Positions 12,103 to 32,000 are shown, counted from the first letter of the stretch. The stretch: 32,000 bases of DNA from an uncultured delta proteobacterium (GCA_963733195.1 CAVTCR010000036.1:2784-34783); one strand, 5' to 3'. Notes: generated by a model from the letters alone, not told the origin. Numbers and translations are program-made.

Positions 12103-12326
12103 CCGAACGCTGGAGTTTCTCGTTCAGCCGCAGGCCGCAACGTTTGTGGCTCCTTAGAGCTGCAGATGATGGCAGTTATGCTGTTGTCGTGTATATAAGA
12201 TGATGCGCACGGGATATTCGTGGTGGGACGTGGCCCAGTATGTCACAAATCTGTACCCTTTTCCTCTCCACCTTCATCTGACCGGAGGATTTGCATAGGT
12301 ATTGATAAGAATAAGAGGAGGACTAT

Positions 12327-13160: not shown

Positions 13161-13354
13161 GACTCAACACTCATTCAGAGAAGAAACCGCTAACTTTCGC
13201 AGCATGGCCCGCTTCTTTTGCTGATGTCTTGCCCCACCGATTTTTCCATCGTCAAAAAGGATGAGGAGGCGTTTCTTTCCTAGGCGCTACAGCTTTTATC
13301 CACTGTCGTGTAGAGCTCCCTCACGTAGGAGATAGGCACGCGGCTGCTGCGTTG

Positions 13355-15019: not shown

Positions 15020-15247
15020 TGCTCCTCTGATGTCAGGGTTGCGTCTACATGATGACAGTTTAGCGGCACTCCTAAAAGAGCGTCTGCACCATTTCACGCT
15101 ACGAGAGTTTTGCACCCTCACAAGGGAACTGAGCTGTCGTACGTTCACGAGATCGCAACGAGACTAATATAAAAGTGCAACACAGTCAGTGTACGCATGC
15201 TCTCTTTGTGTTGCGTGATAAAAACCGACCAGATTTAAGGGAGAGCC

Positions 15248-15322
15248 GTAGACTTCACTGCGGTGCTGATCGTCGCCTCCAATCCGGTGGATGTGATGAC
15301 TGAGGTGATGGCTAGAAAGTAA
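15248..15322 (+). pseudogene. Possible lactate/malate dehydrogenase internal fragment (about 24 codons)
   Basis: VDFTAVLIVASNPVDVMTEVMARK* contains the LDH/MDH signature (V/A)SNPVD.MT. It is bounded upstream by TAA. The match is short, so a chance hit is possible. Confidence 0.3.
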
Positions 15323-15345
15323 GAAGCACAAAGGAAGGATGGTTA

Positions 15346-16074
15346 TTGACATCACCCGCAATAGCAACATTGCTTCTCTTGCCTGGACTTGACGGAACCG
15401 AGGTGTTTTTTCAACCCCTCATCGCTACCCTTCCAACATGGGTACGACCAGTAGTTGTGACGTTTCCAACTGCTGGAGCTAACGGGTACGCAGACTTGCT
15501 GCCACTCGCGGAAGCAGCAGTCGCAGATATTGATAACTTCTATATTCTTGGCTGGTCGTTTTCCGGGCCGTTGGCGCTTATGCTTGCTGCAAAAGAACCA
15601 CAGCGGACACGAGGAGTGATCCTCAGCGCATCGTTCATCCGTCCTCCGTTACCCATTTTACCGTGGGTTCGCTTTGCCATCGGTACACCTATAGTGACTC
15701 TTATTCGGCTGGCTCGGCGGACTCCTGGTCTCATACCTGGCCGTTGGTCAGAACAGTTCAAGCGCGACAAGGCAGCCACATGGGGGCGAGTTCCCGCAGA
15801 GGTTCTGGCCGCTCGTGCACAGGCTATCCTGACAGTCGATGCGCGCGATGCTCTGTGTGCCTGCTCTGCACCGATACTCTATATAGCCGGGTCACACGAT
15901 CGCGTCGTGCCGCACCGGAATGCTGAGGCAATAATCCGGGAGGGGTCGAAAACACAAATAGTGATTATCAAAGGTTCTCACTTGGCGATGTATACAAATC
16001 CAGCGGCAGCAGCCACAGCCATTACTGGTTTTCTGCAAGTTCACGTCGGCTCCTATTCTACAAGCTTTGAGTAA
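15346..16074 (+). CDS. Alpha/beta-fold hydrolase (esterase/lipase-like)
   Basis: Intact 242-aa ORF with a TTG start after AAGGAAGGA. The nucleophile elbow is GWSFSG. Candidate Asp is in GSHDRVV and candidate His in KGSHLAM. Confidence 0.75.
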   Translation: MTSPAIATLLLLPGLDGTEVFFQPLIATLPTWVRPVVVTFPTAGANGYADLLPLAEAAVADIDNFYILGWSFSGPLALMLAAKEPQRTRGVILSASFIRPPLPILPWVRFAIGTPIVTLIRLARRTPGLIPGRWSEQFKRDKAATWGRVPAEVLAARAQAILTVDARDALCACSAPILYIAGSHDRVVPHRNAEAIIREGSKTQIVIIKGSHLAMYTNPAAAATAITGFLQVHVGSYSTSFE

Positions 16075-16265
16075 TCAGCGGGAGCAGTCCATTCGTTTCC
16101 CTATCACAAACAGCGCTACCAAATCTTCACACGCCGGTAACGCGGGCGACACATTCATCCTATACACTTTATCAAAATACATACTTCGTGCTTAATGGAG
16201 TGAATACGACATACTTTAGCATTGCTCATCTGACAAAACGCTTTGTTACTCGGCCTGCTGCGATT

Positions 16266-17474
16266 ATGAAAGCGCCTCAGCGAGCAGTTCCTCGTCGCCA
16301 TCTCTGTATCGTCACTGAAACGTACCCACCAGAAGTCAATGGTGTTGCCATTACCGTGGCGCGCTTGGTGGACGGACTGCGAGCGCGGGGGCATATGGTG
16401 TCAGTTATACGGCCACGCCAGCGCATCGCCGATGGTTATGGCGGAGGGATCGACTTCAGAGTGACACTCGTGCGGGGTTTGCCGTTGCTTGGGCACACGG
16501 GGGTACAGTTTGGTCTGCCAGCGGGCCGCATGCTCAGCCGCTCGTGGACCCGATGCCGTCCCGATGCTATCTATGTAGCGACAGAGGGGCCGTTAGGCTG
16601 GTCGGCGATGCGTACTGCGCGACGGTTGAGCATTCCGGTCCTGAGCGGCTTTCACACCAATTTTCACAGCTACTCACAGTACTATCGTGCAGGTTGGTTG
16701 CAACCAGTGATCCTGCGTTACCTGTGCGCGTTTCATAATCAAACACAGGGGACATTGGTCCCCAGTAAAGAACTCCAGGCTCAGTTGCAGGAGCTTGGTA
16801 TACACAACGTCCATCTCCTGGCACGCGGAGTTGACACTCAGCTCTTTCATCCTGAGCGCCGCAGTGCCGCAGTGAGAGCTCAATGGGGCGTGGGTGAACA
16901 CGACGTGGCTGCTCTCTACGTGGGCCGAGTAGCACCAGAGAAAAACTTGCGGCTGGCGGTAGCTGCTTACCAGGCCATGCAACAGTACAGCAATTCTGTG
17001 AAGTTCGTCATTGTTGGTGACGGTCCCTTCCGTGCCACTCTCCAAAAGGAACACCCCGACATCCGTTTTTGTGGGCTACTCACTGGCGAGCGGTTGGCTA
17101 CGCATTATGCTTCAGCGGACGTATTTCTTTTCCCCAGCGAAACCGAAACCTTTGGCAACGTCACCTTGGAAGCACTGGCAAGCGGGCTGGCGGTTGTTGC
17201 GTATAACTATGCCGCCGCCAAGATGCACATCGTGCAGGGCAAGACGGGAATCTTGGTCCCATATGGCGATGCCAGTGGCTTCGTCGAGGCAGCCGCTCAG
17301 CTTGTTCGTGAGCCAAAGTTACTCACCTCAATACGACGACAGGCACGGACAGCCGTTGCCGCGGTCGATTGGCAGCGTGTGATCGAACGATTTGAAACGC
17401 TACTGGTGAACGCGCATGTGCAACATCGTGCCGTTGAGACCCCGTCGCCCATGCACCAAAGGATGGCAACCTAA
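16266..17474 (+). CDS. GT4-family (GT-B) glycosyltransferase, Agt/SqdX-like
   Basis: The N-terminus is LCIVTETYPPEVNGVAITVARLV. The C-terminal donor-binding region is FLFPSETETFGNVTLEALASGLAVVA. The start ATG at 16266 is chosen by the usual distance to the first beta-strand; GTG at 16188 is an alternative. Confidence 0.85.
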   Translation: MKAPQRAVPRRHLCIVTETYPPEVNGVAITVARLVDGLRARGHMVSVIRPRQRIADGYGGGIDFRVTLVRGLPLLGHTGVQFGLPAGRMLSRSWTRCRPDAIYVATEGPLGWSAMRTARRLSIPVLSGFHTNFHSYSQYYRAGWLQPVILRYLCAFHNQTQGTLVPSKELQAQLQELGIHNVHLLARGVDTQLFHPERRSAAVRAQWGVGEHDVAALYVGRVAPEKNLRLAVAAYQAMQQYSNSVKFVIVGDGPFRATLQKEHPDIRFCGLLTGERLATHYASADVFLFPSETETFGNVTLEALASGLAVVAYNYAAAKMHIVQGKTGILVPYGDASGFVEAAAQLVREPKLLTSIRRQARTAVAAVDWQRVIERFETLLVNAHVQHRAVETPSPMHQRMAT

Positions 17475-17523
17475 ATGGAACTACAGAACATTCGTACACT
17501 TTACCGGTCGGCCCCACGGGCGT

Positions 17524-17620
17524 GTCATTCTGAGCCCTTCGACAGGCTCACCTGTGCCTGCGGCACTGGCGCAGGCAGGACAGGTCTCTGTGAGAGACTC
17601 TTCGTTTCCCTCAGGGTGAC
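17524..17620. repeat. Structured REP-like intergenic element
   Basis: The head GTCATTCTGAGC (17524-17535) partly pairs with CCTCAGGGTGAC (17609-17620). Internal stems are tgcctgcg/cgcaggca and gtctct/agagac. The head is related to the elements at 1344 and about 6886. Confidence 0.3.
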
Positions 17621-17682
17621 AACTCTGGGGCGCTGATATTTTGAGGTCTGATTTAGTTGCAACCGGAAGGAGGACTCTCGTA

Positions 17683-19989
17683 ATGGTGGTGGAAGAAGCG
17701 TTGCACAGATGGGCTGCGTGTTTTGGCTTGCCGGCGACCGCGGTTTGTCAGGTGGAATCCGGAGATGGATGGATTCTCCTTGGGTTAGTAGTAGTCGTCT
17801 CGTTCATCACTTTCGCGGGGAGGAAACTTCTCACCGCCATCGTTACCATACGGGCGCTGGCAATAACACCTCTGCTCTCACGGATAGTGTCAAAGTGGGT
17901 CAAATCACGTAATTTCTCTGATGAGGAGTTTTTTCACGCCGACGGAGCAGGGGAGGAGTGGCGCGGCCGCCGTAAACATGCGCTTGACCGTTTAGCTAAC
18001 CTCTTACAAACCCGTTGCGCCAAGTCCATTGCCTGGGGAGATGCGATCCGCGAGAGTTTTTCTGATTTGCGTTTTACCGATGCCAATCGAGTACCTTTTC
18101 CCTTTATGCGACTGATGCGCGAGAAGTTTAATCTCTGCTCGGTGGTTACTGCTTCACAGGGGCCGAAATTGCGCGATATCGATGGCCACTGGACCTTGGA
18201 TGTCAGTGGTTCCTACGGACTCAATGTCGCAGGTTTTGACCGTTACAAAGAATGGATGGACAAAGGATGGGAACGGGTGAAGGACCTTGGGCCGGTGTTG
18301 GGGCCACTGCATCCGGTGGTGGCTGAAAATATCACTTTACTCAAATCCGTGGCGAAAATGGACGAGGTGTCCTTTCACATGAGTGGTACCGAGGCCGTTA
18401 TGGCCGCGGTACGACTGGCACGGTTTAACACGCGCCGGAAGTTGATCGTCTGTTTTTCAGGCGCCTATCACGGCTGGTGGGATGGCGTGCAGCCGGGGTT
18501 AGGAAGTGAACGGGCGATTGACGATTGCCTTACGCTGAAGGATATGCATCCGGCATCACTGCAGGTTATTCGCTGGCGCGCGAAAGAAATTGCCGGGGTG
18601 CTGGTCAATCCACTGCAATCGTTTCATCCGAATACGCCGCCTCCAAGTGATACGGTCCTGCTCACCAGCGAGATGCGCAAAACCCAGGAGTCTACTGCCG
18701 CGTATGCCCAGTGGCTGCACGAACTCCGCGAGGTCTGTCGCGCGTGTGATATTCCGCTCATCTTTGATGAAGTGTACACCGGCTTTCGCCTCGCACCGGG
18801 TGGGGCGCAAGAATACTTCGGTGTACAGGCTGACATCGTTGTCTATGGCAAGACCGTCGCCGGAGGCATGCCCATTGGCGTCGTCTGTGGAAAGAAGCAG
18901 CTCATGCGGCGCTTTGATCCAGCCCACCCTATGCGCATTGCCTACGTCATCGGAACATTTTCGGCTCATCCGCTGGTAATGGGCGCGATGAACGAATTTT
19001 TGCAATGGGCGGTCCAACCTACGACGGCACGTTTGTATGACACGACCAGGCAACAGTGCGAGCAGTGGGTACACGCGACCAATCAGAAACTGGCCGAGGC
19101 AGCGTTACCGCTGCGGGTGATGCACTTTGCTACGGTATGGACCGTGCTGTTTCAGGAACCGAGTCGTTATAACTGGTTGTTTCAGTACTACCTGCGTGCT
19201 GAAGGAATCACTTTGAGTTGGGTGGGTACCGGACGCTGTCTGAATAGCATGGACTTCACGGCGGACGACTATCAGGAACTGCAGGAGAAGATCCTCAACG
19301 CTGCCACCAGTATGCAGCGTGATGGATGGTGGTTGACGGAAGAGCAACAACCCGGAAGGGAAAAAACGATGCGCACGCGCCTCCTCTGGGAAATGGTGGG
19401 AAGTCTGATCCAGGTGCCTGCTCCGATTAAAAGCTTTTACGCGGAAGTGATGCGTCGTAAGCATGACGATCATGTTGCCTCTCACAGCAACAGTATCAAC
19501 CAATTCTTTCACCTGCTGAGTTCCAGTGTGTTCATTTATTGTTATGGTTTGGTCTTTTGGGATCTCACCCAGGCGATGTGTCTGGGATTAGCTGCACTAT
19601 TTGTGCGACAGATTGGGCATGCGGTCTTAGAGCCCCCGTGCCACGATAAAGAAGCCCTGCTCTTGGGTTTTACGACACCCAATAAAACCTTGATCGTGGC
19701 TGGCTATTTGCTGGTTCCCCTCCTCCATCTTGTCAGTGCAGGTTCCCTGAGCCTTGCGACCTTGACCGCAATAGTGCCCACAGTCGCGCAACAGTGGTTC
19801 TTCCTGACACTGGCCGCTGTGTTGGGACACGTGGCGTATTTGTTGTGGAAGTACGATGTTCGCAGTGCGATAATTTGGTTGGTAAAACTCGTTACAGACC
19901 CACTGACCGACATCGGCGCCTATTACTCCAGCCCGGCGCGATTATTCCGACTGTCCCAGACCCACGTTCAGAAAGGAGAAACGGCATGA
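17683..19989 (+). CDS. Fusion protein: N-terminal TM anchor, class-III PLP aminotransferase (glutamate-1-semialdehyde aminomutase-like), and a C-terminal Mpo1/DUF962-like polytopic membrane domain
   Basis: Intact 768 aa from the ATG at 17683, after GGAAGGAGGA. The TM helix is WILLGLVVVVSFITFAG. The aminotransferase fold is marked by FHMSGTEAVMAAVRLAR, IFDEVYTGFRLAPGG and VVYGKTVAGGMPIG (candidate PLP lysine). The C-terminal roughly 200 aa are hydrophobic and carry HSNSINQFFH (H-x4-N-x3-H) and RQIGHAVLEPP motifs. Confidence 0.8.
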   Translation: MVVEEALHRWAACFGLPATAVCQVESGDGWILLGLVVVVSFITFAGRKLLTAIVTIRALAITPLLSRIVSKWVKSRNFSDEEFFHADGAGEEWRGRRKHALDRLANLLQTRCAKSIAWGDAIRESFSDLRFTDANRVPFPFMRLMREKFNLCSVVTASQGPKLRDIDGHWTLDVSGSYGLNVAGFDRYKEWMDKGWERVKDLGPVLGPLHPVVAENITLLKSVAKMDEVSFHMSGTEAVMAAVRLARFNTRRKLIVCFSGAYHGWWDGVQPGLGSERAIDDCLTLKDMHPASLQVIRWRAKEIAGVLVNPLQSFHPNTPPPSDTVLLTSEMRKTQESTAAYAQWLHELREVCRACDIPLIFDEVYTGFRLAPGGAQEYFGVQADIVVYGKTVAGGMPIGVVCGKKQLMRRFDPAHPMRIAYVIGTFSAHPLVMGAMNEFLQWAVQPTTARLYDTTRQQCEQWVHATNQKLAEAALPLRVMHFATVWTVLFQEPSRYNWLFQYYLRAEGITLSWVGTGRCLNSMDFTADDYQELQEKILNAATSMQRDGWWLTEEQQPGREKTMRTRLLWEMVGSLIQVPAPIKSFYAEVMRRKHDDHVASHSNSINQFFHLLSSSVFIYCYGLVFWDLTQAMCLGLAALFVRQIGHAVLEPPCHDKEALLLGFTTPNKTLIVAGYLLVPLLHLVSAGSLSLATLTAIVPTVAQQWFFLTLAAVLGHVAYLLWKYDVRSAIIWLVKLVTDPLTDIGAYYSSPARLFRLSQTHVQKGETA

Positions 19990-20522
19990 GTCTGTGGCTC
20001 TTTCTTGCAGTCGCACTCTTGTTGGGCCTCGAACGTATAGTGTACATGTGGGCGTCACGCGACCCTGAGTCTTTCCGTGCCTGGTGTCTTCAGGTTTCCC
20101 CGGCATCGTCTGACACACCGGTTACGGTGCTCCAGGAGCTTTTCTACGGGTTCAAAGGGATTCAGTTCGTCGTGTTTTTTGGCTGGTGCGCCTGGTACCA
20201 GCAGAGGGCACCGTCGATGCTCGGCGAGGCAACGTTGCCGTTGGTCGTGGGCGGTACCTTACTGGTGATAGGACAGGTGCTCAATCTGAGTGTGTTTTAC
20301 CGATTGGGGATGAACGGAGTATTTTACGGCAATCGATTTGGCGAGAAGATTCCCTGGTGTCGAGAGTTTCCCTTTTCTCTGTTTCGGCATCCGCAGTATG
20401 TCGGCACATTGTGTTCTATCTGGGGATTTTTCGCCGCTGTACGTTTTCCGCATGACGATTGGTATCTGCTTCCTGCACTCGAAACGCTGTATTACGCCTA
20501 CGGTGCGTACGTGGAGTTCTAA
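19986..20522 (+). CDS. PEMT-type (Opi3/PEMT family) membrane methyltransferase
   Basis: 178 aa. The ATG at 19986 overlaps the upstream TGA (ATGA) and follows AAAGGAG. The protein is polytopic and has the C-terminal motif REFPFSLFRHPQYVGTLCSIWGF, typical of the phospholipid N-methyltransferase/ICMT superfamily. Confidence 0.7.
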   Translation: MSLWLFLAVALLLGLERIVYMWASRDPESFRAWCLQVSPASSDTPVTVLQELFYGFKGIQFVVFFGWCAWYQQRAPSMLGEATLPLVVGGTLLVIGQVLNLSVFYRLGMNGVFYGNRFGEKIPWCREFPFSLFRHPQYVGTLCSIWGFFAAVRFPHDDWYLLPALETLYYAYGAYVEF

Positions 20523-20589
20523 CCGACGGTGAGTAGGAACTGTCGATGGTAAAAACGAGTAGAGAATTTTGTTCGAGTCAGTACCGCCC

Positions 20590-21738
20590 ATGAACTCACT
20601 TGTGCAATTGTCGCCCGTTTGGGACACAGGCTGTGCTGTCGAGCAGTCTGTGACGATTCAAAGCCATTACAAAAAGGTGCTCCTCCCGAATGAAGATATT
20701 TCCGATAGCCTGATCCATCAACCGCATCGCTATCGGAGCGTGTTTGTTTCTGATCTGCATTTAGGTACGATGTCCTGTTGTGCTAGTGACTTTGTCCAGT
20801 TCCTTAATCATTTGCAGACTGAGTATCTCTTTTTAGTCGGTGATATCTTTGACTTCTGGAAAATGCGGATTTTCAACCCCGTCAAGCTCGGCAAGCTACT
20901 AGGCACGGGAGTGCTCAGCCGTTCGCAGTTGACAGTGGTACAAAAACTCTTGCGAGCGGATCGCCACGGGGTAAAAACTGTCTTTGTGCCAGGCAACCAT
21001 GACGAAGCGCTGCGCGATTTCGTCGGCGCGCGACTCAGTAACATCATGTTGTTACGCGATGCTATCCATGAGACCAAAGACGGACGGCGTTTCCTTGTGC
21101 TGCATGGCGATTGTTTTGATGGGGCGGTGCGTCAGCATCGCTGGCTGAGTATCCTCGGGACCCATGCGTTTGAACTCGTTGCTAAGTTGAGCATGCACAT
21201 CGATCGATGGCGTAAATATGCACGGATTAACCGGGTCTTAGAATACGTGGGGTTGGAATCGCGCTGGTCGTTAGCCCATGCGATCAAAACGCGCTCCGAC
21301 GGTCGTACATACACCGAGTCTTACATCCAAGCGATTCTGACGTATCTCTTCACTAAAAATGAACAGATCTATGCGCGACAGAAACAGCGATCTTCTGCTC
21401 CTCATGAAACTTATTTTTCCGGGATTATCTGCGGCCATACCCACGTGCCAAAAGTCCGGCAATTCTGTTCGCCTATCGATGCCGATACCGGGGAAACCAT
21501 CGGACCGCCAGTGGTAACCTACCTGAACACCGGCCATTGGACCGGACGTCCGGTTGACGATGCAACAGCAACTGGAGCGTGGCACCAGGATTTGCAACAC
21601 CCAGCATGCACAGCGGTGGTAGAGGATCTGGATGGACACCTAAGAGCGATACGATGGGTTCCAGGGAAGGGAATTGTGCCGCTTCTACAGAGGGACGAGA
21701 CAGAGCGAGAACCGCAGCTCGACAAGTTGAGAGCCTGA
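20590..21738 (+). CDS. Calcineurin-like metallophosphoesterase of the LpxH / PlcP (phospholipase C) type
   Basis: Metallophosphoesterase motifs occur in order: VFVSDLHLG, LVGDIFDFW, VPGNHDE, LVLHGDCFD, CGHTHVP. The start ATG at 20590 is preferred over TTG at 20569. Confidence 0.75.
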   Translation: MNSLVQLSPVWDTGCAVEQSVTIQSHYKKVLLPNEDISDSLIHQPHRYRSVFVSDLHLGTMSCCASDFVQFLNHLQTEYLFLVGDIFDFWKMRIFNPVKLGKLLGTGVLSRSQLTVVQKLLRADRHGVKTVFVPGNHDEALRDFVGARLSNIMLLRDAIHETKDGRRFLVLHGDCFDGAVRQHRWLSILGTHAFELVAKLSMHIDRWRKYARINRVLEYVGLESRWSLAHAIKTRSDGRTYTESYIQAILTYLFTKNEQIYARQKQRSSAPHETYFSGIICGHTHVPKVRQFCSPIDADTGETIGPPVVTYLNTGHWTGRPVDDATATGAWHQDLQHPACTAVVEDLDGHLRAIRWVPGKGIVPLLQRDETEREPQLDKLRA

Positions 21739-21885
21739 CGGTGTGTACGCCGGTGAGCACCAAGCTCTGCCGCTATAGGAAAGCTATAGAAACGCTACAG
21801 CAAGATATGGAAAAGTAAGGGAGAGAGAAATCCGCAATCCACCTCAACCTACCTCTCGTGCCTCCTTACTAACCCGAGGTGAGTA

Positions 21886-22656
21886 ATGTTGGACTGTTTT
21901 TGCTCAGCGATCAAGCCAACGCGTGCCGTTATCTTCGATGTCGACGGCACCCTGCTCACGGATACAATTCATCAGGACAAGCATAACTTTATTATCAGCC
22001 AGGTGCTGCACCGGCCCGACTTGCTGCTCTCCGCAGAAGAGTGGCAAGGCATCCGTGGGTTATCGGACGACGATGCGTATCGGTACATAGCCGCGAAGGC
22101 AGCGGCTCATACCTTTGCCCTTGAAACCTCGCTCCCTGAAGCCACTTACCTAGCGATGGTACACGGCTATGTGAACGACCACGTCGACGACATCTCCGTC
22201 CGTCCTGGGGTCCGCGAGGTGCTCTCTGCCGTTGAACAGTGCGGACTAGTGATGGGCGTCGCAACCAATGCTGACTGGCCTGAAACTGAAAGAAAACTGT
22301 CACGAACCGGACTGGCAAAATACTTCCATTTTTTCGTATGTCTAGATGGAGTCCTGGTGCCAAAGCCCGCACCAGACTTGTATCTGCGTGGCATTCGCTT
22401 GGTGCGCGACATTGTCGGCAACAACATAGAACCGGAACAGGTCTTGGCAATTGAAGATACCCACGTTGGCGCACTGGCCGCGCAGAGAGCCGGGTGTCGC
22501 GTGATTGTGTGTCTGCAAGACGGAAGAGACATGCTCGTCGATGACGCAACGCATGACCACCGAAGCGTGTTGATCGCTAACAGTATCCACGACAGCATCA
22601 AGTACATCAGACCAACTGAAAACCATTCACGTTCCTGTCCTTTGCTGAGCATCTGA
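21886..22656 (+). CDS. HAD-superfamily phosphatase (subfamily IA-like)
   Basis: Motif I is VIFDVDGTLL, motif II is GVATNA, and motifs III/IV are K..EDTHVGALAAQRAGC. The RBS is GAGGTGA. Confidence 0.85.
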   Translation: MLDCFCSAIKPTRAVIFDVDGTLLTDTIHQDKHNFIISQVLHRPDLLLSAEEWQGIRGLSDDDAYRYIAAKAAAHTFALETSLPEATYLAMVHGYVNDHVDDISVRPGVREVLSAVEQCGLVMGVATNADWPETERKLSRTGLAKYFHFFVCLDGVLVPKPAPDLYLRGIRLVRDIVGNNIEPEQVLAIEDTHVGALAAQRAGCRVIVCLQDGRDMLVDDATHDHRSVLIANSIHDSIKYIRPTENHSRSCPLLSI

Positions 22657-22745
22657 ATCAAGGATCATGGCTGACACAAATGGCAACGGCCAGCAGTACA
22701 TAAAGATAGACTCTCTGGCGCCAGTCTCTTCACGAGTTTTCCATC

Positions 22746-24836
22746 TTACGAAGGCGTCTGCGGTGTAAACGGTAACAGGAGAGGTTGACTGCTGGCGGTC
22801 AATTCGTACAAACGCTCTTGGGAGCGAAAGGGTGGATCCCCAGTCGCTGTTAGACGTTTCGAATGACCGTCTGAGAGGATCACGCGAGCTTTGACTGTGT
22901 CACCTAACTGAATATCGAGAATCTTGCGAAGGTGTGTCTGCAAGTGCGGATCGAGAATTGGAAACGCGACCTCAATACGGTTATCAAGATTCCGAGGCAT
23001 CCAATCGGACGACGCGAGCCAATACTCTGGGGTCCCTGCATTGTGGAAATAGAAAATCCGCGCGTGCTCAAGGTAGCGGTCGATAATCGAGATGACACGG
23101 ATACGGTCGGAAACTCCAGGGATACCGGGGCGCAGACAGCACAAGCCACGGACAATCAGGTCAATCTGAACGCCTGCTTGGCTGGCAGCATACAATTCGT
23201 CAATCACCACAGGGTCTTCTAACCCGTTCATTTTGGCAATCAAGTGAGCAGACTGTCCAGCGCGGGCGTGCTCCGCTTCCCGCTGGATACGTCGCACTAA
23301 GCCATCGCGCAAATCGAAGGGAGAAACCAACAAGTGGCGAGATTCCCGTGGGTGGGCATAGCCAGTCATGAGGTTAAACAATTCAGTTAAATCTTCTCCG
23401 AACGTATCACGACAAGTGAAGAGGCCGAGGTCACCATATATGGTGCTGGTACGGACGTTGTAGTTACCAGTGCCGAGGTGACAATAGCGGCGCAGTCCGT
23501 CTGCTTCCTGGCGGACCACCATGCACGCCTTACAATGGGTCTTATACCCGACGATGCCATAGACCACGTGGGCACCAACTTCTTCTAGTGCGCGTGCCCA
23601 GGAAATATTTGCTTCTTCATCAAAGCGTGCGCGCAGTTCCAGTAACACCGCTACTTCCTTGCCATTCTCTGCGGCGCGGGCGAGAATCTGTGGAATGGGT
23701 GAGGCTGATCCGACGCGATACAAGGTCATCTTGATTGCCAGCACTTTGGGATCATCTGCTGCCTCTTCCAAGAAGCGCGTCACGGTGCGGAACGACTGAT
23801 AGGGATGATGAACAAGAATGTCGCCGCTGCGAATGGCGCTCCACACATCAGGGGTGCCCTCGAATGCCGACACTGGAAGTGCTGGTTGGGGGCGATCTTT
23901 GAGCCGTGGCAAATCGATGGCAGTATATAACTGAAAGAGATCAGCAAATGCCGTAAAGCCCTTGCCGGGATATAAGTCTTCCGGTTGGAGTTCAAGTTCA
24001 GTAACGAGCTTGGTCAGCACATCGACAGGAAGATCATCGTCATACTGCAAACGCACTGCCGCGCCCATCCGGCGATCCCTCACACTTTGTTCTATCGCGG
24101 AGAGTAGGTCCTGGTTTCGCACGAGGGGCAGTTGCATATCAGCATCACGGGTGACGCGCACGGCATGGCACGAAAGGACCTCATACCCATGATAGAGCTG
24201 CGACAAGTACAGATGAATAACATCTTCCAACAAGATAAAGACGTATTCACCCGCCGAGGCTGGCAACGCAATAAAACGCGGGACGACCTGCGCTGGAAGA
24301 TGCACAACCGAAAGTGAGGTCTTCGGCAGATGCGATGGTCTGGACGGCCGCAGAGATGCGACCAGGCAGAGCGAGCGATTGGCAAGGTGCGGGAACGGAT
24401 GTCCTGGATCAATTGCTAACGGGGTAACAATCGGAAACAGCGTGCGGCGAAAGTAGTCTTGGAGGAAATGCTTTTGGCCCTCTGTCAGGTCGGGAGGACT
24501 AATAATACGAATTCCTTCGGTCATTAACCGTGGCTGCAGATCTTCCAAAAAACATCGATGCTGCTCCTCAGCCAGACGATGCACGCGCTCGGCAATAGCG
24601 GTTAGCGTCTGGGCGGGAGTGAGTCCATCGGGGCCGGACTGCTGGTCTCCGGTAGCAATACGCTGTTGGAGGCGAGCTACCCGCACCATGAAGAATTCGT
24701 CGAGATTGGAACTGAAAATCGCCAGGAATTTCACTCGTTCCAACAGTGGAACACTTTCATCGAGCGCTTCCTCAAGCACACGGCGGTTGAACTCCAGCCA
24801 CGAGAGTTCTCGATTGGTATACAGGTGCACTTCCAT
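22746..24836 (-). CDS. ppk: Polyphosphate kinase 1
   Basis: Intact 696 aa. Conserved motifs are YTNRELSWLEFNRRVLEEA, SNLDEFFMVRV and HLGTGNYN. Length is typical of PPK1. Confidence 0.95.
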   Translation of the reverse strand: MEVHLYTNRELSWLEFNRRVLEEALDESVPLLERVKFLAIFSSNLDEFFMVRVARLQQRIATGDQQSGPDGLTPAQTLTAIAERVHRLAEEQHRCFLEDLQPRLMTEGIRIISPPDLTEGQKHFLQDYFRRTLFPIVTPLAIDPGHPFPHLANRSLCLVASLRPSRPSHLPKTSLSVVHLPAQVVPRFIALPASAGEYVFILLEDVIHLYLSQLYHGYEVLSCHAVRVTRDADMQLPLVRNQDLLSAIEQSVRDRRMGAAVRLQYDDDLPVDVLTKLVTELELQPEDLYPGKGFTAFADLFQLYTAIDLPRLKDRPQPALPVSAFEGTPDVWSAIRSGDILVHHPYQSFRTVTRFLEEAADDPKVLAIKMTLYRVGSASPIPQILARAAENGKEVAVLLELRARFDEEANISWARALEEVGAHVVYGIVGYKTHCKACMVVRQEADGLRRYCHLGTGNYNVRTSTIYGDLGLFTCRDTFGEDLTELFNLMTGYAHPRESRHLLVSPFDLRDGLVRRIQREAEHARAGQSAHLIAKMNGLEDPVVIDELYAASQAGVQIDLIVRGLCCLRPGIPGVSDRIRVISIIDRYLEHARIFYFHNAGTPEYWLASSDWMPRNLDNRIEVAFPILDPHLQTHLRKILDIQLGDTVKARVILSDGHSKRLTATGDPPFRSQERLYELTASSQPLLLPFTPQTPS

Positions 24837-24839
24837 GCT

Positions 24840-25820
24840 TCAGACTCCTCGCCCGAACGTCTCGCGCAGAAGCAATCCTTGTCGTACACCTTCGGTACAC
24901 ACTGTGAGGGTACGATAGTTGCCGAGTCTCATGACTTCTTCGACGACAACGGTTCCCGCAAGGATGACGTCCGCGCGCTCCTCTTTGAGGCCGCCCAATT
25001 GCGTACGTTCGCGTGCCGAGAGTCCCTCCATGCGTTCGCGGAGCGCAGTGATGTCGGCTCGTTGGAGGCTTAGCCCTAGTCGCGACCGTTGCTTATTGAT
25101 GGCGGTCAAATGCATACGCCCGAGGGTCCGGATGGTCCCACCGAGCCCAACCATTTCGTTGCCAGAAGTCGATAGGAAAAATTTTCTTTCGAGCTGACGC
25201 TGGACTTCCTGACGTAGCGCCTGTACTTGCTGTGCGGTTGGCGGATCGCTTTTGAAAAACCGGAAGGTAGTGCGAACTGACCCGAGCGGCAAGCTGGCAG
25301 CTGAGGTGATTTCCTCTTCGCGCACGTGAGAGAGTTGGAGGCTGCCGCCACCAAGATCCGCGACGGTGCCGTTGCGGAAGGAAAGGCTCCGCAACGCGGC
25401 CTGGGTGCCCAACAAGGCTTCTTCTAAGCCACTGAGAATGCGGACCGAGACCCCAGCTTCGCGCTGCAACTTCTCCAGCAATTCATTGCGATTCGTCGCC
25501 TCGCGCACGGCTGACGTGGCTACGGCGAGGATACGCGGGCGATACTCCCGTCGAGCTTCGCGGAGAAAGCGGCGGATGGCGTCGGTGGTTTCCCTGATCG
25601 CTGTGGGAGACAATACGCCAGGACGACCAGCGCTCAGGCGCGTTTGTACACGTTCTTCGCGGAGCACCTGAAAGCCTACTCCCGGAAGGACTGAAGCGAC
25701 AAGACAGCGGACGGCATTTGATCCTAATTCTACCAGCGCGAGAAACTCAGACACATGAGAAGCATAAGAAAGTGCTCCGCGAAGATCAAGAGCGACCTCA
25801 CTTTTTGTCGATACTGGCAT
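24840..25820 (-). CDS. ppx: Exopolyphosphatase / guanosine pentaphosphate phosphohydrolase family (Ppx/GppA)
   Basis: ASKHA motifs LVELGSNAVRCLVA and VADLGGGSLQLS are present. The start ATG is at 25818-25820 after GGAGAGGGAG. The stop lies 3 nt before the ppk ATG. Confidence 0.9.
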   Translation of the reverse strand: MPVSTKSEVALDLRGALSYASHVSEFLALVELGSNAVRCLVASVLPGVGFQVLREERVQTRLSAGRPGVLSPTAIRETTDAIRRFLREARREYRPRILAVATSAVREATNRNELLEKLQREAGVSVRILSGLEEALLGTQAALRSLSFRNGTVADLGGGSLQLSHVREEEITSAASLPLGSVRTTFRFFKSDPPTAQQVQALRQEVQRQLERKFFLSTSGNEMVGLGGTIRTLGRMHLTAINKQRSRLGLSLQRADITALRERMEGLSARERTQLGGLKEERADVILAGTVVVEEVMRLGNYRTLTVCTEGVRQGLLLRETFGRGV

Positions 25821-26170
25821 TAACCACTCCCTCTCCACCCCCCACAATATACGCCTCCAGTTTTGCTAAAGCCTGTTGTACGTCCTCTCCTGAGGCGTTC
25901 AGGTGTCGCATAACCCGCCGCATATCGATCATGTCTCCCGGATGACGAAGGAAGTGCAGCAGCACCTTGTCTCCCGTGTCCTCGGGATCGATTTGCAGTG
26001 TCAAAGGAACTACGCTCTGGTTGATTGCTTGCCCAACATCGGCTGCGGTGGCGTGAAAGGTAACGCATCAATTTACGTACGCGTCGGATAGCGTATGGAT
26101 GACGGTGCAAATGTTGAGCGATCTTATCCCTCACCTCGTCAGGTGTATGCAGACGATCGGATGAATCCAT
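25798..26170 (-). pseudogene. Small hypothetical protein (about 120 aa), first gene of the ppx-ppk transcription unit, one frameshift near 26065
   Basis: MDSSDRLHTPDEVRDKIAQHLHRHPYAIRRVRKLM joins, after a 1-nt shift, to TFHATAADVGQAINQSVVPLTLQIDPEDTGDKVLLHFLRHPGDMIDMRRVMRHLNASGEDVQQALAKLEAYIV. Its stop overlaps the ppx start by 23 nt. No family was recognised. Confidence 0.35.
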
Positions 26171-26692: not shown

Positions 26693-27097
26693 TTATGACG
26701 ATGCTAACGGGGAACTTTGTTTCTCCTTCGATGCTTTACTCAGATCTCGGATGTCTTGATCGAAGAGCATTTCTTGTACGAATGCCGCGAGAGTGTGCTG
26801 TGCCTCTGTGTAGCAGCCACGACCAAGTGGGGTAAGCTTATAGTAACGACGAACCCTACCTTGGACAGTGGTTGTGTGACTCTTGAGCAGTTTTGTCTGC
26901 TCGAGTGTGTGAAGCAGAGGGTAGAGCGTTCCTGGACTCACAGTGTAGTCGAATTTGCGTAATGCTTTGATCAGGGCGCCCCCATATACCGGCTCGTGTT
27001 GGGCACGCTGGAGGATAAACAGTTTGATCATCCCATTGATGAGCGATCGGCGGAGTGAGTTTACGGAATCATGCAGATCAAACTTGCGGGTTGCCAT
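26693..27097 (-). CDS. PadR-family transcriptional regulator
   Basis: MIKLFILQRAQHEPVYGGALIKALRKFDYTVSPGTLYPLLHTLEQTKLLKSH..GRVRRYYKLTPLG is a canonical PadR winged helix. Confidence 0.85.
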   Translation of the reverse strand: MATRKFDLHDSVNSLRRSLINGMIKLFILQRAQHEPVYGGALIKALRKFDYTVSPGTLYPLLHTLEQTKLLKSHTTTVQGRVRRYYKLTPLGRGCYTEAQHTLAAFVQEMLFDQDIRDLSKASKEKQSSPLASS

Positions 27098-27957: not shown

Positions 27958-28048
27958 ATCGTCCCCGTATGAATAGTCGTCACCCTCATGATAGTGAGGA
28001 AAATTTCCCTCGGCGGTCCGCCTTACGGTGATGCAGAAAGGAGTCCGT

Positions 28049-30244
28049 ATGAAGTTTGCCAGTACGGTACTGGCTGTGACGCTGACGAATGTCGTACTCA
28101 CTGGTTGTCTCGCAAGGGAAGGGCAAAGCCAAGTGGATACGGGAGCGCCGCTTTCTTCTTTGGTTGCGATTGGCCAGGAAAAAGGTGGCGACGTCACTAA
28201 GTTTGTCAAAAAGAAAGTCGATGATTTTGCCTTTGGCGATCTCGACGGTTTTCCGTTTCCGCTCGAACCAGGCGTCTCTCCTGAATCGGTACGCACGCTC
28301 AAGGGACTGCGCAGTAATGTGGTGGTCAAGTGGTTTGATCCGCTAACCAGTGATACCTCGGCGAATGCTCCCCGTTACGGGGCGAACAACGATTATGTTG
28401 CCTACTTTGGCGACGGCTGGGACAAGAACTGGGAAGGCAGTGATATCCCGGGAAGTGCACCGCAGTTCAATGGCAGTGGGAAGGCTGGCTGGATCTGGGT
28501 GAATAACGAATACGTGTCAAACGATCTGCCGACAGCGACGAGTGCGCCGACCGGTCAATTCCTCTCGCTGGGAAAACACTTGTTTGGCCTCGGCATTCTC
28601 AACAACGATGTCACTGCTGATATCTGGAGTCAGGAGGATCTCGACACCTTTATTCGAAACTACAAAAAGGAGCTGGGCGGTTCGTGGTTCAAAATCACCA
28701 AAGACTCTTCAGGCAACTGGAGTGTCGATCGCAGCGCGACAGCAGTGCGCTACGATTCCACCAGCAACACGTTGTCGCGTATCACTAGTTACAGTTCGTA
28801 TCTCCCAGACCAGGATGACACCGGCAATCCATTGCCCAATGGCGTCGTCGCTGGTATCGCCGGTGACTGTTCAGGAGCACAGACACCATGGGGGACAATC
28901 ATCACTGGGGAAGAGAACGTGCAAGATTATTACGGCGATCTCGAAACCGCCTGGGATAGTAACCAGAAGTTTGTTGCCGGGAAAGGATTCGACCCGGGAA
29001 GCAACATCAATCCACCGTATGAAGCGAGTACTGCCGCCCAGTTCGGGCGACTGTCTGACCCGAACGAGCGACACAATCGTGACACTCTCGGCTACCTTGT
29101 TGAAATCGACCCTGGCATTGCCGCAAACAAATTCTACACAAGTGTGAAAGCGAACGGTGACGGCAAAGGGCACCGGAAACTAGGAGTACTTGGTCGCGCC
29201 CGTTGGGAAAACGCAACGTTCGTTGTCGACGAGAACTGGGAACTCATTCCAGATCAACCGATCGTCATCTATGCAGGCAATGATCGTCGCAGTGGACGGC
29301 TCTATAAGTTCGTTAGTAAAGAGCTGTACCGCGAAGGTATGAGCAGAGGCGAGATTCGCGCGCTGCTTGATGAGGGGACGCTCTATGTTGCTCACTTTGC
29401 TGGTTTGGATAACAAGACCGGCAACACTATTCTCTCTGGTAGTACCTCGGTCGCACCGACCGAAACCGCTCCTGGAAGAGGGCAGTGGATTCACCTCAGC
29501 GTGAATAGCAAAGATGTCGCACCCAACGCCTCTGCCCTTGGTACCGCCGGTAAAACAGTTGGTGACGCTTTGAAGGATCTCAATTGGAATGGGATCGGCG
29601 GTTTCCCCACTGACGATGATGTGCGGCGCGCGTTGTTTACTGCTGAAGCAAAAATCGGCGTGGCGGAATTGAACCGGCCAGAAGATTTGGAATGGAACCC
29701 TAAAGGCCCGAATGGAATCCCACGCTTGTACATCGCCTTTACCAATCACACCGGCGGCACACAGCTTGACCAAAGTGGGAAGTTGCTCAAGACCGATGTA
29801 ACTGATCGGCGCAACGATGGCGATGGCGAAATCTGGGCGTTGCAAGAAGCCAGTCCCGACCACCCGGCCGGGTCGAAAAGCTTTACCTTCTTTCAGGTCG
29901 CAAAAGGAGCGAACGCCGGGAAAGATAACTTCGAGTTCGCCGCGCCGGATAACATCATGATCGACCGCAACGGCGGCGTATGGTTTGGGACCGACGGCAA
30001 CTTCGGTCGTACCAGTAGCAAAGCCGCAGATTGCCTGTACTATCTCGATCTTGACCTGTCACATCGCGAAGGACCGATGCTGTTCAATGTAACGTATGGT
30101 AAGGCCTTCCGTGTCGCATGTGTACCTAGCGACGCGGAAGTGACTGGTCCAGCGTTCAGCTCTGATCAGGAAACTATCTTCCTTTCCGTGCAACATCCAG
30201 GTGAAGATCCCCAAAACGTTACCAGCTTCCCGCAACCACGATAG
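28049..30244 (+). CDS. phoX: PhoX-family (DUF839/COG3211) alkaline phosphatase, predicted lipoprotein
   Basis: The ATG at 28049 follows AAAGGAG. The signal peptide MKFASTVLAVTLTNVVLTGC has a lipobox. PhoX-type motifs are GDCSGAQTPWGTIITGEENV and FAAPDNIMIDRNGGVWFGTDGN. Confidence 0.85.
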   Translation: MKFASTVLAVTLTNVVLTGCLAREGQSQVDTGAPLSSLVAIGQEKGGDVTKFVKKKVDDFAFGDLDGFPFPLEPGVSPESVRTLKGLRSNVVVKWFDPLTSDTSANAPRYGANNDYVAYFGDGWDKNWEGSDIPGSAPQFNGSGKAGWIWVNNEYVSNDLPTATSAPTGQFLSLGKHLFGLGILNNDVTADIWSQEDLDTFIRNYKKELGGSWFKITKDSSGNWSVDRSATAVRYDSTSNTLSRITSYSSYLPDQDDTGNPLPNGVVAGIAGDCSGAQTPWGTIITGEENVQDYYGDLETAWDSNQKFVAGKGFDPGSNINPPYEASTAAQFGRLSDPNERHNRDTLGYLVEIDPGIAANKFYTSVKANGDGKGHRKLGVLGRARWENATFVVDENWELIPDQPIVIYAGNDRRSGRLYKFVSKELYREGMSRGEIRALLDEGTLYVAHFAGLDNKTGNTILSGSTSVAPTETAPGRGQWIHLSVNSKDVAPNASALGTAGKTVGDALKDLNWNGIGGFPTDDDVRRALFTAEAKIGVAELNRPEDLEWNPKGPNGIPRLYIAFTNHTGGTQLDQSGKLLKTDVTDRRNDGDGEIWALQEASPDHPAGSKSFTFFQVAKGANAGKDNFEFAAPDNIMIDRNGGVWFGTDGNFGRTSSKAADCLYYLDLDLSHREGPMLFNVTYGKAFRVACVPSDAEVTGPAFSSDQETIFLSVQHPGEDPQNVTSFPQPR

Positions 30245-30338
30245 CGAGCACCTGGACAGACCAATTCCCGTCCCACCTTCCTGTACCGATAAGGCAAGAG
30301 GGTGGGGCGGACGAGAGCGTGTCTTTAGAAGAGTTTCG

Positions 30339-32000
30339 ATGATCTCCTTCAATCACAAATCTCCGGTCCTCCTCTTTTTGGTGTGGCCGCTGGTTTTCAT
30401 AGCCTTCGGCTTCCTGCTAGTTATAACAATGGCAGAGTTGGGACGAGAATACGTGACCAACAGCGTGGCAGATAACGTCGCTCCCTACGACCCGCTTGCG
30501 ATTGCTCATGAAAGCATTGGGAAAACCGAAAACTTCGAGGCCGTCGTTCCTTCACAGTGCTACACCAAGACCGACGGGGTAGCAAATCCATGCTGGACCT
30601 GCCACACTCAGCCACAAGGAGAAAACTATCAGAGAGATTGGCACTTGCAGGAAGTATATTCATTTAGTGACTTTGCTCTCACCAATCGGTGGAAGAATCT
30701 CTTCGTCGATCGTTCCGCTACCATAGCGACGATCAGCGATGCGGAGACCCTTTCGTACATTCGCACCGACAACTATACGCCACTCCGCCTGGCTCTTACT
30801 GGACGACCTGGTTTTCCGGGGTATGTACCGGACCTCGACCTTACTCAAGGATTTGACGACGAAGGATTTGCCAAAGATGGTAGTGGTTGGCGAGCGATTC
30901 GCTACAAGCCCTTTCTTGGGACGTTCTGGCCCACTAATGGGAATACCGATGATGTGATGATCCGTCTGCCGCGTATCTTCCAAACGGATAGGCAGGGGAA
31001 TATCTCCCGTGAGATCTACAAAGTGAATCTTGCCCTCTTGGAAGCGGCTATTGCTGTTGCACCGACAACACCACCTGACAAACTAGACCGTCTTGTTGAG
31101 CCCGTGAGCGAGATCACTGCTGGTGTTGACTTTGATGGGGATGGGCAACTGATCTCACAGGTGACACGTATTCGTAAACTGCCGACGCATTATCGAGGCG
31201 GTGCAAGCCCGATTGCGGTCAGTCGCTATCGCTACCCAGAGGGAACAGAATTTCTCCACACTGTGCGTTATATCGACCCGGAAAAACCGACACTATTGTC
31301 GGCACGCATGAAAGAAGTGCGCTACGCACGCAAAAGGATGTGGCTCGATGATTGGGCGCTCTTGCGCGCGTATGAAAAAGAACTGCTCGATAAAGAAGAG
31401 GGAAAGCTTCCGACATTCAAGGGATCACCGTTTGTTGGGTTGCAAAACGACTTTGGTTGGCAGTTGCAGGGTTTTATTGAAGACGCACAGGGGAGGTTAC
31501 GACTCCAAACTGAAGAAGAGCACCGATTCTGTATGGGATGCCATAGCACGGTCGGGGTGACAGTCGATCAAACTTTCGCTTTTGCCCGCAAAGTGCCGGG
31601 GGTAGAAGGTTGGCGACATCAAGACCTGCGTGGCATTCGTGATGTCCCGCAAGCAGGACATGCCGCCCCAGAAATCCTCACCTATTTCCGTCGTGTAACC
31701 GGTGGTGATGAGTTCCGAGCAAATGAGGAGGTACTCCACCGCTTCTTTCCCTCTGGTATGCTCGATGAACCCACGGTGCGTCGTGCTGCTGCTGGCGGGG
31801 ACCAAGATATCACTTTTCTCGTCGCACCTTCTCGTCAGCGGGCTCTGCAACTCAACAAAGCCTATATTGCACTTGTGCGGGAACAAACCTTTGCCCAGGG
31901 ACGTGACACTCTGTTAGCTCCTCCGCGCAATGTACACGACAAGATCGATAATGGCTCGACTGACCTCGGAAAAAGCGGACGAGTCTATTTCGATGGGCAG
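30339..32000 (+). CDS. Membrane-anchored putative dihaem c-type cytochrome of unknown family (3' end outside the window)
   Basis: My own codon-by-codon reading from the ATG at 30339 gives 554 sense codons to the window end. The ORF is missing from the supplied ORF track because it has no stop in the window. The N-terminal hydrophobic anchor is VLLFLVWPLVFIAFGFLLVI. Two CxxCH motifs are present: NPCWTCH (about aa 83) and FCMGCH (about aa 395). Confidence 0.7.
   Translation, partial: MISFNHKSPVLLFLVWPLVFIAFGFLLVITMAELGREYVTNSVADNVAPYDPLAIAHESIGKTENFEAVVPSQCYTKTDGVANPCWTCHTQPQGENYQRDWHLQEVYSFSDFALTNRWKNLFVDRSATIATISDAETLSYIRTDNYTPLRLALTGRPGFPGYVPDLDLTQGFDDEGFAKDGSGWRAIRYKPFLGTFWPTNGNTDDVMIRLPRIFQTDRQGNISREIYKVNLALLEAAIAVAPTTPPDKLDRLVEPVSEITAGVDFDGDGQLISQVTRIRKLPTHYRGGASPIAVSRYRYPEGTEFLHTVRYIDPEKPTLLSARMKEVRYARKRMWLDDWALLRAYEKELLDKEEGKLPTFKGSPFVGLQNDFGWQLQGFIEDAQGRLRLQTEEEHRFCMGCHSTVGVTVDQTFAFARKVPGVEGWRHQDLRGIRDVPQAGHAAPEILTYFRRVTGGDEFRANEEVLHRFFPSGMLDEPTVRRAAAGGDQDITFLVAPSRQRALQLNKAYIALVREQTFAQGRDTLLAPPRNVHDKIDNGSTDLGKSGRVYFDGQ

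Follow-up and report, generated by a model that had tools for sequence, protein, structure and literature searches.

Here we focus on two neighbouring genes at one end of a stretch of DNA of 32,000 nucleotides (nt) from an uncultured delta proteobacterium (GCA_963733195.1, CAVTCR010000036.1:2784-34783), which as a whole is referred to as the window. The upstream gene is phoX, encoding a PhoX-family phosphatase. The downstream gene is cut by the window end and belongs to the Aq_1262 family (PF27085), whose member here is predicted to be a c-type cytochrome with two haems. The pair had been pointed out in an earlier reading of this DNA (the original prediction), and the analysis presented here followed it up with homologue searches, structure modelling and a survey of the same pair in other genomes. 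The positions of the features discussed are collected in Table 1.

The phoX gene starts with an ATG at 28049 that has GGAG 7 nt 5' of it, and its stop codon occupies 30242-30244. Its product matches the Pfam model PF05787 over residues 83-718 (E 8e-56, 190.6 bits with a cut-off of 24), and the Pseudomonas fluorescens PhoX structures 3ZWU and 4AMF match it at E 1e-19. The N-terminus, MKFASTVLAVTLTNVVLTGC, can be read directly as a short positive n-region, a hydrophobic core and an L-T-G-C lipobox. No twin-arginine (RR) motif occurs in this N-terminus, and the alternative GTG start at 28028 would add only seven residues, still without RR. The claim that this PhoX carries a lipoprotein signal (VLTGC) and not a twin-arginine signal is thus borne out by its N-terminus, its lipobox and the lack of RR.

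With residue numbering of the P. fluorescens enzyme derived from chain offsets in the structure-chain alignment, C274, E387, D412 and R543 of the window PhoX align to Cys179, Glu273, Asp292 and Arg385, and the QHPGE sequence is present as well. We take Cys179 and Glu273 to be active-site or metal-ligand residues of P. fluorescens PhoX. Asp292 and Arg385 have been named as PhoX active-site residues (PMC11098088). Judged from these residues, the window PhoX looks like a catalytically intact Fe/Ca phosphatase, one that would be exported by the general secretory (Sec) pathway and lipid-anchored rather than exported by twin-arginine translocation (Tat). The intact active-site residues rule out the reading of the protein as a PhoX-like pseudo-enzyme. 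In a 97%-identical locus (L001), one extra G is found at ~9874 (CCCCAGAAAC vs CCCCAAAAC; window ~30213), about 30 nt before the phoX stop. It shifts the frame, and phoX is called there as a protein of 764 amino acids (aa) whose gene overlaps the start of the cytochrome gene. This is probably a sequencing or assembly error or a recent frameshift, because the window PhoX ends in ...QHPGEDPQNVTSFPQPR, as other PhoXs do.

Downstream of phoX, the frame that begins with the ATG at 30339 stays open for 554 codons and reaches the window's final base, 32000. As the original prediction had said, it is missing from the list of open reading frames (ORFs) because it runs off the window end. Homologues are plentiful, with more than 3,400 matches in a search of 5.8 billion proteins. 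The best 120 of these are 60-99% identical with 88-100% of the query covered (at least 91% in almost all), and are 508-762 aa long, mostly 530-590. The best match, P0001, is a PF27085 protein of 562 aa that is 99% identical at 100% coverage, and it supplies the 8 residues beyond the window, LWLDWTGS. A frameshift or stop just past the window, which the original prediction had wanted checked, is ruled out by this full-length homologue ending 8 residues later. The precomputed annotation PF27085 'Aq_1262' is attached to P0001 and to all 120 listed homologues, so that the window protein is a member by proxy, through its homologues and not through a direct model match. An exhaustive profile search of 1.84 billion representatives, defined at 50% identity, returned 670 members at E <= 1e-3 and 242 at E <= 1e-30.

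Direct scans of the window protein with Pfam and NCBIfam gave sub-threshold matches only (P460, 16.3 bits; paired_CXXCH, 10.9 bits). Single-sequence and profile searches of the PDB found no sequence-related solved structure, and the literature searched held no paper on 'Aq_1262' or 'PF27085'. Could the open frame at the window edge be a chance, non-functional ORF with fortuitous CxxCH motifs? Only the truncation at the window end speaks for such a reading. It is refuted, and its chances put at next to nothing, by thousands of homologues at 60-80% identity across phyla, by the full-length match that ends 8 codons past the window, and by invariant haem motifs together with a confident structure model. 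On these grounds, taken from sequence comparison and modelling, the downstream ORF can be accepted as a real gene, and its family is defined though uncharacterised. The original prediction had recognised no family features in it, which has to be revised: it is an Aq_1262 gene with a predicted P460-like second haem domain.

The protein starts with a membrane anchor or uncleaved signal, and all homologues examined have a transmembrane anchor, a signal peptidase I (SPI) signal or a lipobox at the same N-terminal position, as c-type cytochromes require. Two haem-c attachment motifs follow, CWTCH at residues 85-89 and CMGCH at 398-402. They are 313 residues apart, where about 310 had been predicted along with the anchor; among homologues the spacing is 307-453, with a median of 338. 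In an alignment of 146 sequences that reaches down to 38% identity, both motifs are invariant, and so are C74, Y75, H307, Y311 and Y329. H307, Y75, Y311 and Y329 are putative axial ligands. Nearly all full-length divergent representatives keep both CxxCH motifs. From motif conservation and extracytoplasmic targeting, the window protein is predicted to be a dihaem c-type cytochrome.

An AlphaFold2 (AF2) model based on the 146-sequence alignment (pLDDT 94.4, pTM 0.90) supersedes an earlier one from 20 sequences (pLDDT 66.7). It consists of an N-terminal helix (residues 9-40), a mostly irregular part with short helices that holds haem motif 1 (~50-155), a large beta-rich domain (~175-390) leading into a helix with haem motif 2 (392-402), and a helical C-terminal domain. 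Foldseek found no PDB match to the cytochrome model at E <= 1e-3; the best-ranked structures for both AF2 models, not significant, were cytochrome c'-beta and cytochrome P460. The Pfam model Cytochrome_P460 (PF16694; gathering score 27) gives the window protein 16.3 bits (E 0.013) at residues 371-405, and its gathering score is reached in the relatives P0310, P0326, P0329, P0330, P0331 and P0342 (27.1-30.5 bits). By this measure the domain is related to P460, although the window protein does not itself qualify as a PF16694 member. Because of the Foldseek ranks and the Cytochrome_P460 score over the motif 2 region, we conclude that the second haem probably lies in a P460/c'-beta-type domain, and that the whole protein would be a new combination. 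The P460/c'-beta-like haem is presumed to be open-coordinate and reactive, with the N-terminal haem-c segment serving electron transfer. Members of the known P460/c'-beta family have a haem with an open distal site.

The families that the original prediction had proposed for comparison, MauG/dihaem peroxidase and DUF1111, did not match in hidden Markov model searches. Membership of MauG/CCP (PF03150) was rejected with no match at E <= 1 and a beta-rich model centre, and that of DUF1111 (PF06537) with no Pfam match at E <= 1. As a positive control, a true CCP_MauG gene in a Sulfurovum locus (L091) scores 144 bits with PF03150.

The pairing of the two genes was followed through other genomes. 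For the close clade, 185,579 species, each represented by one genome, were scanned by pattern and tblastn. This turned up 228 relatives; 80 loci were fetched, and their six-frame ORFs were searched with the window PhoX. Three of the 80 do not extend far enough to be judged. Of the 77 informative loci, 61 have a PhoX (42-57% identical, 530-880 bits) as the immediate upstream neighbour in the same orientation, and in one more it is adjacent but convergent. Carriers belong to Chloroflexota, Acidobacteriota, Binatia, Dadabacteria, Thermodesulfobacteriota, Myxococcota, Planctomycetota, Bdellovibrionota, Spirochaetia and Gammaproteobacteria. A distant clade, whose cytochromes are 38-44% identical to the window protein, was sampled through six matches looked up from the profile search with divergent members. 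All six genes sit directly downstream of a PhoX of 587-630 aa, in Hydrogenovibrio crunogenus, Teredinibacter turnerae, Desulfolithobacter dissulfuricans, Methyloprofundus, Seleniivibrio woodruffii and Sulfurovum.

All-vs-all clustering of the ORFs in 81 loci found no other conserved flanking genes beyond synteny at the lineage level. The conserved unit is therefore two genes, since nothing else in the flanks is conserved. Such lineage-specific synteny was seen in Myxococcaceae only, with an ArsR-like gene and a quinone oxidoreductase-like gene. A functional pairing of PhoX and cytochrome across more than ten phyla is strongly supported by this gene order, and the co-occurrence with lipoprotein-type phoX that the original prediction had suggested checking was found in many of them. 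PhoX has been reported in about 22% of bacterial genomes (PMC12704751). Compared with 228 relatives in 185,579 species, in a motif-restricted scan that covers the close clade, this makes it appear that most PhoXs have no PF27085 partner.

The partner PhoXs resemble that of the window. All 64 that were aligned keep residues matching P. fluorescens Cys179, Glu193/194, Glu273, Asp292 and Arg385 together with the C-terminal QHPGE, and they look like competent Fe/Ca phosphatases, not pseudo-enzymes. A lipobox is present in at least 42 of 63, and most of the others have an SPI-like signal. A classical PhoX context (L092) offers the contrast, with the Tat motif LSRRSFIGAG, no cytochrome neighbour, and 75% identity to a P. 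fluorescens PhoX fragment. It is the one usable context of its kind, a second (L093) having ended at a contig edge, and with the 163-aa P. fluorescens PhoX fragment as query short gene fragments only were found. In 31 of the 63 partner PhoXs, a collagen-like G-X-Y repeat linker (GPQGEPGAPGEPG...) stands between the lipobox Cys and the catalytic domain. It was seen in Myxococcota and Teredinibacter (L010, L013, L020-L054, L066-L068, L072-L075, L080 and L083), and may be a spacer that keeps PhoX away from the membrane.

Between the two genes the original prediction had counted 95 nt; the spacer is 94 nt, with the ATG at 30339 and not 30340. A consensus scan found no canonical terminator in 30245-30338, where the spacer holds a G+C-rich hairpin. 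Terminator-like hairpins with T-runs occur in the matching spacer of four of the six distant loci (L082 5880-6000, L083 5899-6000, L089 4890-5000 and L090 4932-5000). Over 65 loci the hairpin signal is mixed, with z below -2 in 40%. The spacer hairpin could act by attenuation, so that more PhoX than cytochrome is made, or could form a 3' end that stabilises the transcript. Since hairpins and terminator-like structures stand between the genes, lower expression of the second gene is suggested, and sub-stoichiometric expression of the cytochrome is plausible.

PhoX is not the only protein with which Aq_1262 is associated. In four Nevskia loci, a lipoprotein of the PF04185 'Phosphoesterase' family (phospholipase C/AcpA) is encoded directly upstream, and P0211 (1,053 aa) is a natural PF04185-Aq_1262 fusion. 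In P0129 and P0147, Aq_1262 is fused to a Cytochrom_D1-type propeller. Fusions to a PD40/Tricorn propeller are found in P0180 and in Desulfobulbales proteins of 1,010-1,035 aa, including P0311 (L085 6001-9090); the Desulfobulbales fusion proteins still adjoin PhoX. A Sulfurovum operon (L091 3082-10276) encodes PhoX, Aq_1262, the CCP_MauG protein mentioned above (486 aa) and PhoD, so that both kinds of dihaem cytochrome stand beside two Fe/Ca phosphoesterases. From these pairings and fusions with PF04185 and with other beta-propellers, the Aq_1262 cytochrome is judged not to be specific to PhoX. A second Nevskia copy (L073 4243-6675, L077 4072-6585), with an AraC regulator upstream, has an ORF of 811-838 aa without Pfam match after the cytochrome gene; this ORF may encode a genuine further partner, or may be only a shadow ORF of high-GC DNA.

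Table 1. Features of the window around the phoX-cytochrome pair, with context genes in the last rows
Feature	Position	Strand	Basis or remark
phoX	28049..30244	+	731-aa PhoX-family phosphatase, stop included; ORF list and Pfam PF05787
Lipoprotein (Sec/signal peptidase II-type) signal of PhoX, MKFASTVLAVTLTNVVLTG before Cys	28049..28108	+	Direct reading; no twin-arginine motif
phoX-Aq_1262 spacer, 94 nt	30245..30338	+	phoX stop ends 30244, next ATG 30339
G+C-rich 13-bp hairpin in spacer, no T-tract	30268..30310	+	RNA fold of 30245-30345: -35.8 kcal/mol, z -2.3
Aq_1262-family (PF27085) dihaem c-type cytochrome gene (predicted)	30339..32000	+	554 of 562 codons; window end cuts gene
N-terminal membrane anchor or uncleaved signal, residues 9-40	30363..30458	+	Hydrophobic run PVLLFLVWPLVFIAFGFLLVITMA; single helix 9-40 in model
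Haem-c attachment motif 1, C85-W-T-C88-H89 (CWTCH)	30591..30605	+	C85, C88 and H89 invariant in 146 sequences
Central beta-rich domain, ~residues 175-405, ending in haem motif 2; P460/c'-beta-like	30861..31553	+	AF2 pLDDT >95
Haem-c attachment motif 2, C398-M-G-C401-H402 (CMGCH)	31530..31544	+	C398, G400, C401 and H402 invariant in 146 sequences
PadR-family regulator, divergent from phoX	26693..27097	-	Pfam PadR on 97%-identical L001; context gene
ppk1	22746..24836	-	Pfam PP_kinase on L001; polyphosphate gene, context
ppx/GppA	24840..25847	-	Pfam Ppx-GppA on L001; polyphosphate gene, context

The wider window looks like a phosphate-starvation island. A GDPD gene lies at 4250-5596, and 15346-25847 encodes an alpha/beta hydrolase, a GT4 glycosyltransferase, a 782-aa protein with an Aminotran_3 C-terminal half, a PEMT-like protein, a Metallophos protein, a HAD protein and the products of ppk1 and ppx. 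The Metallophos gene is possibly PlcP-like and concerned with lipid remodelling. Close strains differ here by an indel of ~7.7 kb: the block at 15033-22707, with its hydrolase, GT4, aminotransferase-like, PEMT-like, Metallophos and HAD genes, is missing from L001, where PGM abuts ppk1. L001 also extends past the point where the window ends. There, a secreted protein of 296 aa without Pfam match is encoded from 9 nt past the cytochrome stop and is followed by a Metallophos phosphoesterase, these two genes together lying at 11698-13664, and then by HAD_PNKP and PhoA; the 296-aa and Metallophos genes were not found in the other 80 loci. Scans for promoters, terminators and repeats upstream of phoX gave nothing above shuffled expectation and no convincing Pho-box-like repeat.

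In the reading that we tentatively prefer, the cytochrome serves Sec-exported phosphoesterases as a redox accessory in the periplasm, by which their Fe(III) cofactor would be installed or maintained. It is favoured because the partners are non-Tat proteins, because the predicted architecture combines a reactive haem with a relay haem, because MauG provides a precedent, and because hairpins stand between the genes. In this scheme, PhoX would first be exported unfolded via Sec and then become lipid-anchored. Once out of the cytoplasm, the apo-PhoX would bind Ca2+ and soluble Fe(II). From the same membrane face, the cytochrome would bring the PhoX-bound iron to the Fe(III)-oxo state, or restore that state when the environment has reduced the iron. 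The electrons would be taken by an oxidant at the P460-like haem, or be relayed further by the other haem. The cytochrome would act catalytically and not as a stoichiometric subunit, and would resemble MauG maturing its partner enzyme. The original prediction had argued that a Sec-exported PhoX needs periplasmic help, and the signals fit this part of it, with Sec/lipoprotein partners on one side and the Tat-type L092 without such a neighbour on the other; its mechanism stays conjectural.

More doubtful still is the broader proposal that PF27085 is a new class of extracytoplasmic, haem-dependent 'metallo-activases'. These would allow Sec export of phosphoesterases that depend on Fe(III), among them PhoX and possibly enzymes of the PF04185 and PhoD types, whose cofactor would be built or redox-repaired outside the cell, replacing Tat. 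Were this true, the activity of Sec-exported PhoX would depend on an unrecognised haem protein and on the redox state of the environment.

Several observations weigh against a redox accessory dedicated to such phosphatases. Fifteen informative close-clade loci have no PhoX, some of them no phosphatase at all, and in a Binatia genome (L086) the cytochrome gene is solitary. In two Myxococcota loci, from Haliangium and from the metagenome-assembled genome of a delta proteobacterium (L087 6340-11401, L088 6326-10901), a PF01645 Glu_synthase-domain gene lies upstream and a Lip_C-domain gene downstream, with no PhoX; this is an alternative conserved context. That Aq_1262 is also fused to propellers other than phosphatases (Cytochrom_D1, PD40/Tricorn) suggests a redox module of wider use, and we know of no requirement for iron in PF04185 enzymes. 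RR precedes the lipobox in about three or four partner PhoXs (L052, L059, L076 and perhaps L045), and a few of them (L052, L059 and L076) may still be Tat substrates. The terminator-like hairpins could mean separate transcription instead. The presence of the pair in strict anaerobes (Desulfolithobacter, Seleniivibrio) makes O2 or H2O2 questionable as the oxidant. As for the protein itself, its P460 score of 16.3 bits falls short of the 27 required, none of the fold matches is significant, and haem binding, haem coordination and contact with PhoX in the module are all predicted features. The mechanism of Fe(II) oxidation or assembly is one that we infer by analogy.

Other roles for the cytochrome have to be set against this. 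It might be an electron-transfer subunit, with a PhoX paralogue that oxidises phosphite, hypophosphite or another substrate at Fe and a dihaem protein that relays the electrons to the respiratory chain or a terminal oxidant. Such a role would account for the tight gene pairing, the fusion of Aq_1262 to redox-type propellers (Cytochrom_D1) and the finding of the pair in chemolithotrophs and anaerobes, and weak phosphite oxidation has been reported for purified P. fluorescens PhoX (PMC12704751). However, the partner PhoXs keep the exact hydrolytic active-site residues of classical PhoX, and the neighbours are hydrolytic phosphate-scavenging genes, not respiratory ones. Hairpins and terminators between the genes argue against 1:1 subunits, and the same cytochrome pairs with PF04185, understood as a non-redox hydrolase fold. 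We regard an electron-transfer subunit as quite improbable. We also regard a peroxidase-type role as unlikely. Here the cytochrome would turn over H2O2 or another small oxidant at the cell surface, either to shield the Cys-ligated PhoX iron from Fenton damage or to break organic matter and expose phosphoesters. The presumed open-site P460-like haem with a second haem is the layout of a dihaem peroxidase, genuine CCP/MauG genes are found in the same operons (Sulfurovum L091 and Flavobacterium), and there are degraders and predators among the carriers (Teredinibacter, myxobacteria). Yet neither sequence nor fold relates the protein to CCP/MauG, haems of the P460 family are not known to serve as peroxidases, strict anaerobes have the pair, and general protection needs no such strict adjacency to phoX.

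It is also conceivable that the genes share co-regulation only, the cytochrome being an independent protein of the Pho regulon concerned with, for example, iron or haem handling or substrate capture. The 15 loci without PhoX, some with neighbours unrelated to phosphate, would agree with this, as would the terminator-like hairpins that separate the genes; a gene concerned with iron could well be regulated together with phoX, whose product requires this metal. Co-regulation rarely keeps order, strand and spacing over more than ten phyla and down to ~40% identity, however, and the PF04185-Aq_1262 fusion points to physical cooperation. No other Pho gene is conserved alongside, and we hold co-regulation by itself to be a poor candidate.

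Should the cytochrome be a redox accessory after all, the consequences would reach beyond this locus. Surveys of phosphorus cycling take PhoX as a marker gene, and the iron dependence of PhoX is described as tying the phosphorus and iron cycles together (PMC5454538). If a substantial share of PhoXs depends on such a partner, gene-count proxies of phosphatase potential and heterologous expression would mislead. The use of organic phosphorus would then cost more iron than assumed, haem being needed too, and the long-standing view that PhoX uses Tat because its cofactor is put together in the cytoplasm would meet with an exception found in nature, one whose helper is defined. In its structure, too, the cytochrome is of note, with a confident fold that has no PDB match and a P460-like haem domain away from nitrogen-oxide chemistry. 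Altogether, the PhoX-PF27085 module is uncharacterised, widespread and experimentally tractable.

The closest known system is that of Flavobacterium, where a lipoprotein PhoX is in an operon with a MauG-like dihaem cytochrome and both are strongly induced by phosphate depletion (PMC8812569, PMC8115612). The cytochrome gene, Fjoh_2477, is listed as MauG_like, pf03150, PhoX operon, with a log2 fold change of 9.58 (PMC8115612). Flavobacterium PhoX expressed alone in P. putida had no activity (PMC8812569), and the authors suggest that it may need the cytochrome partner to function (PMC8812569, PMC8115612). The window shares with this operon a lipoprotein-type PhoX beside a gene for a two-haem c-type cytochrome. 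Instead of the two all-alpha cytochrome c domains of the Fjoh_2477 type, the window protein has a beta-rich, P460-like domain, and it does not match PF03150. The two cytochromes are not simple substitutes for one another, because PF27085 and MauG-type proteins occur together in one Sulfurovum operon. In the literature searched for PhoX with cytochrome, diheme or MauG, the Flavobacterium remarks were the only ones found and the PF27085 pairing was not mentioned. What had been noted there is only this analogous pairing. The original statement that such a pairing is undescribed stands for PF27085 and has to give way for PhoX with a MauG-like cytochrome, which is reported (PMC8812569, PMC8115612).

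Other comparisons concern the proteins one at a time. DUF1111 ('di-haem oxidoreductase, putative peroxidase', PF06537) is similar in being extracytoplasmic, ~500 aa long and equipped with two CxxCH motifs, but the window protein does not match its model. With P460/c'-beta (PF16694; PDB 2JE2, 6HIH), the window protein shares an extracytoplasmic location and, as predicted, a CxxCH-bound haem where a beta-sheet domain has its C-terminal end. The P460 and c'-beta proteins are small (~135-160 aa) proteins with a single haem, known as homodimers, and a Lys-haem cross-link defines P460; the domain in the window sits in a membrane-tethered protein of ~560 aa with a second haem and extra domains. In contrast to the nitrogen-oxide chemistry of P460/c'-beta, the gene context of Aq_1262 is phosphate scavenging.

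PhoX, PhoD and the PF04185 phospholipases C are classical Tat substrates. The window PhoX has the PF05787 domain and the active-site residues of classical P. fluorescens PhoX (3ZWU/4A9V/4AMF), but it is longer (731 vs ~590 aa), is lipid-anchored, and has a Sec-type instead of a twin-arginine signal. It also differs from the classical example L092 in having a cytochrome gene downstream, where L092 has no such neighbour. For what that cytochrome may do, MauG, which is cited in PMC8812569 too, serves as the working analogy. MauG is a dihaem enzyme that matures its partner, pre-methylamine dehydrogenase, by oxidising tryptophan side chains to make tryptophan tryptophylquinone. What the two would have in common is a periplasmic dihaem protein with a reactive and an electron-transfer haem, a gene beside that of the enzyme activated, and a catalytic mode of action. 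MauG has no homology to the window protein, and the proposed target here would be a metal centre.

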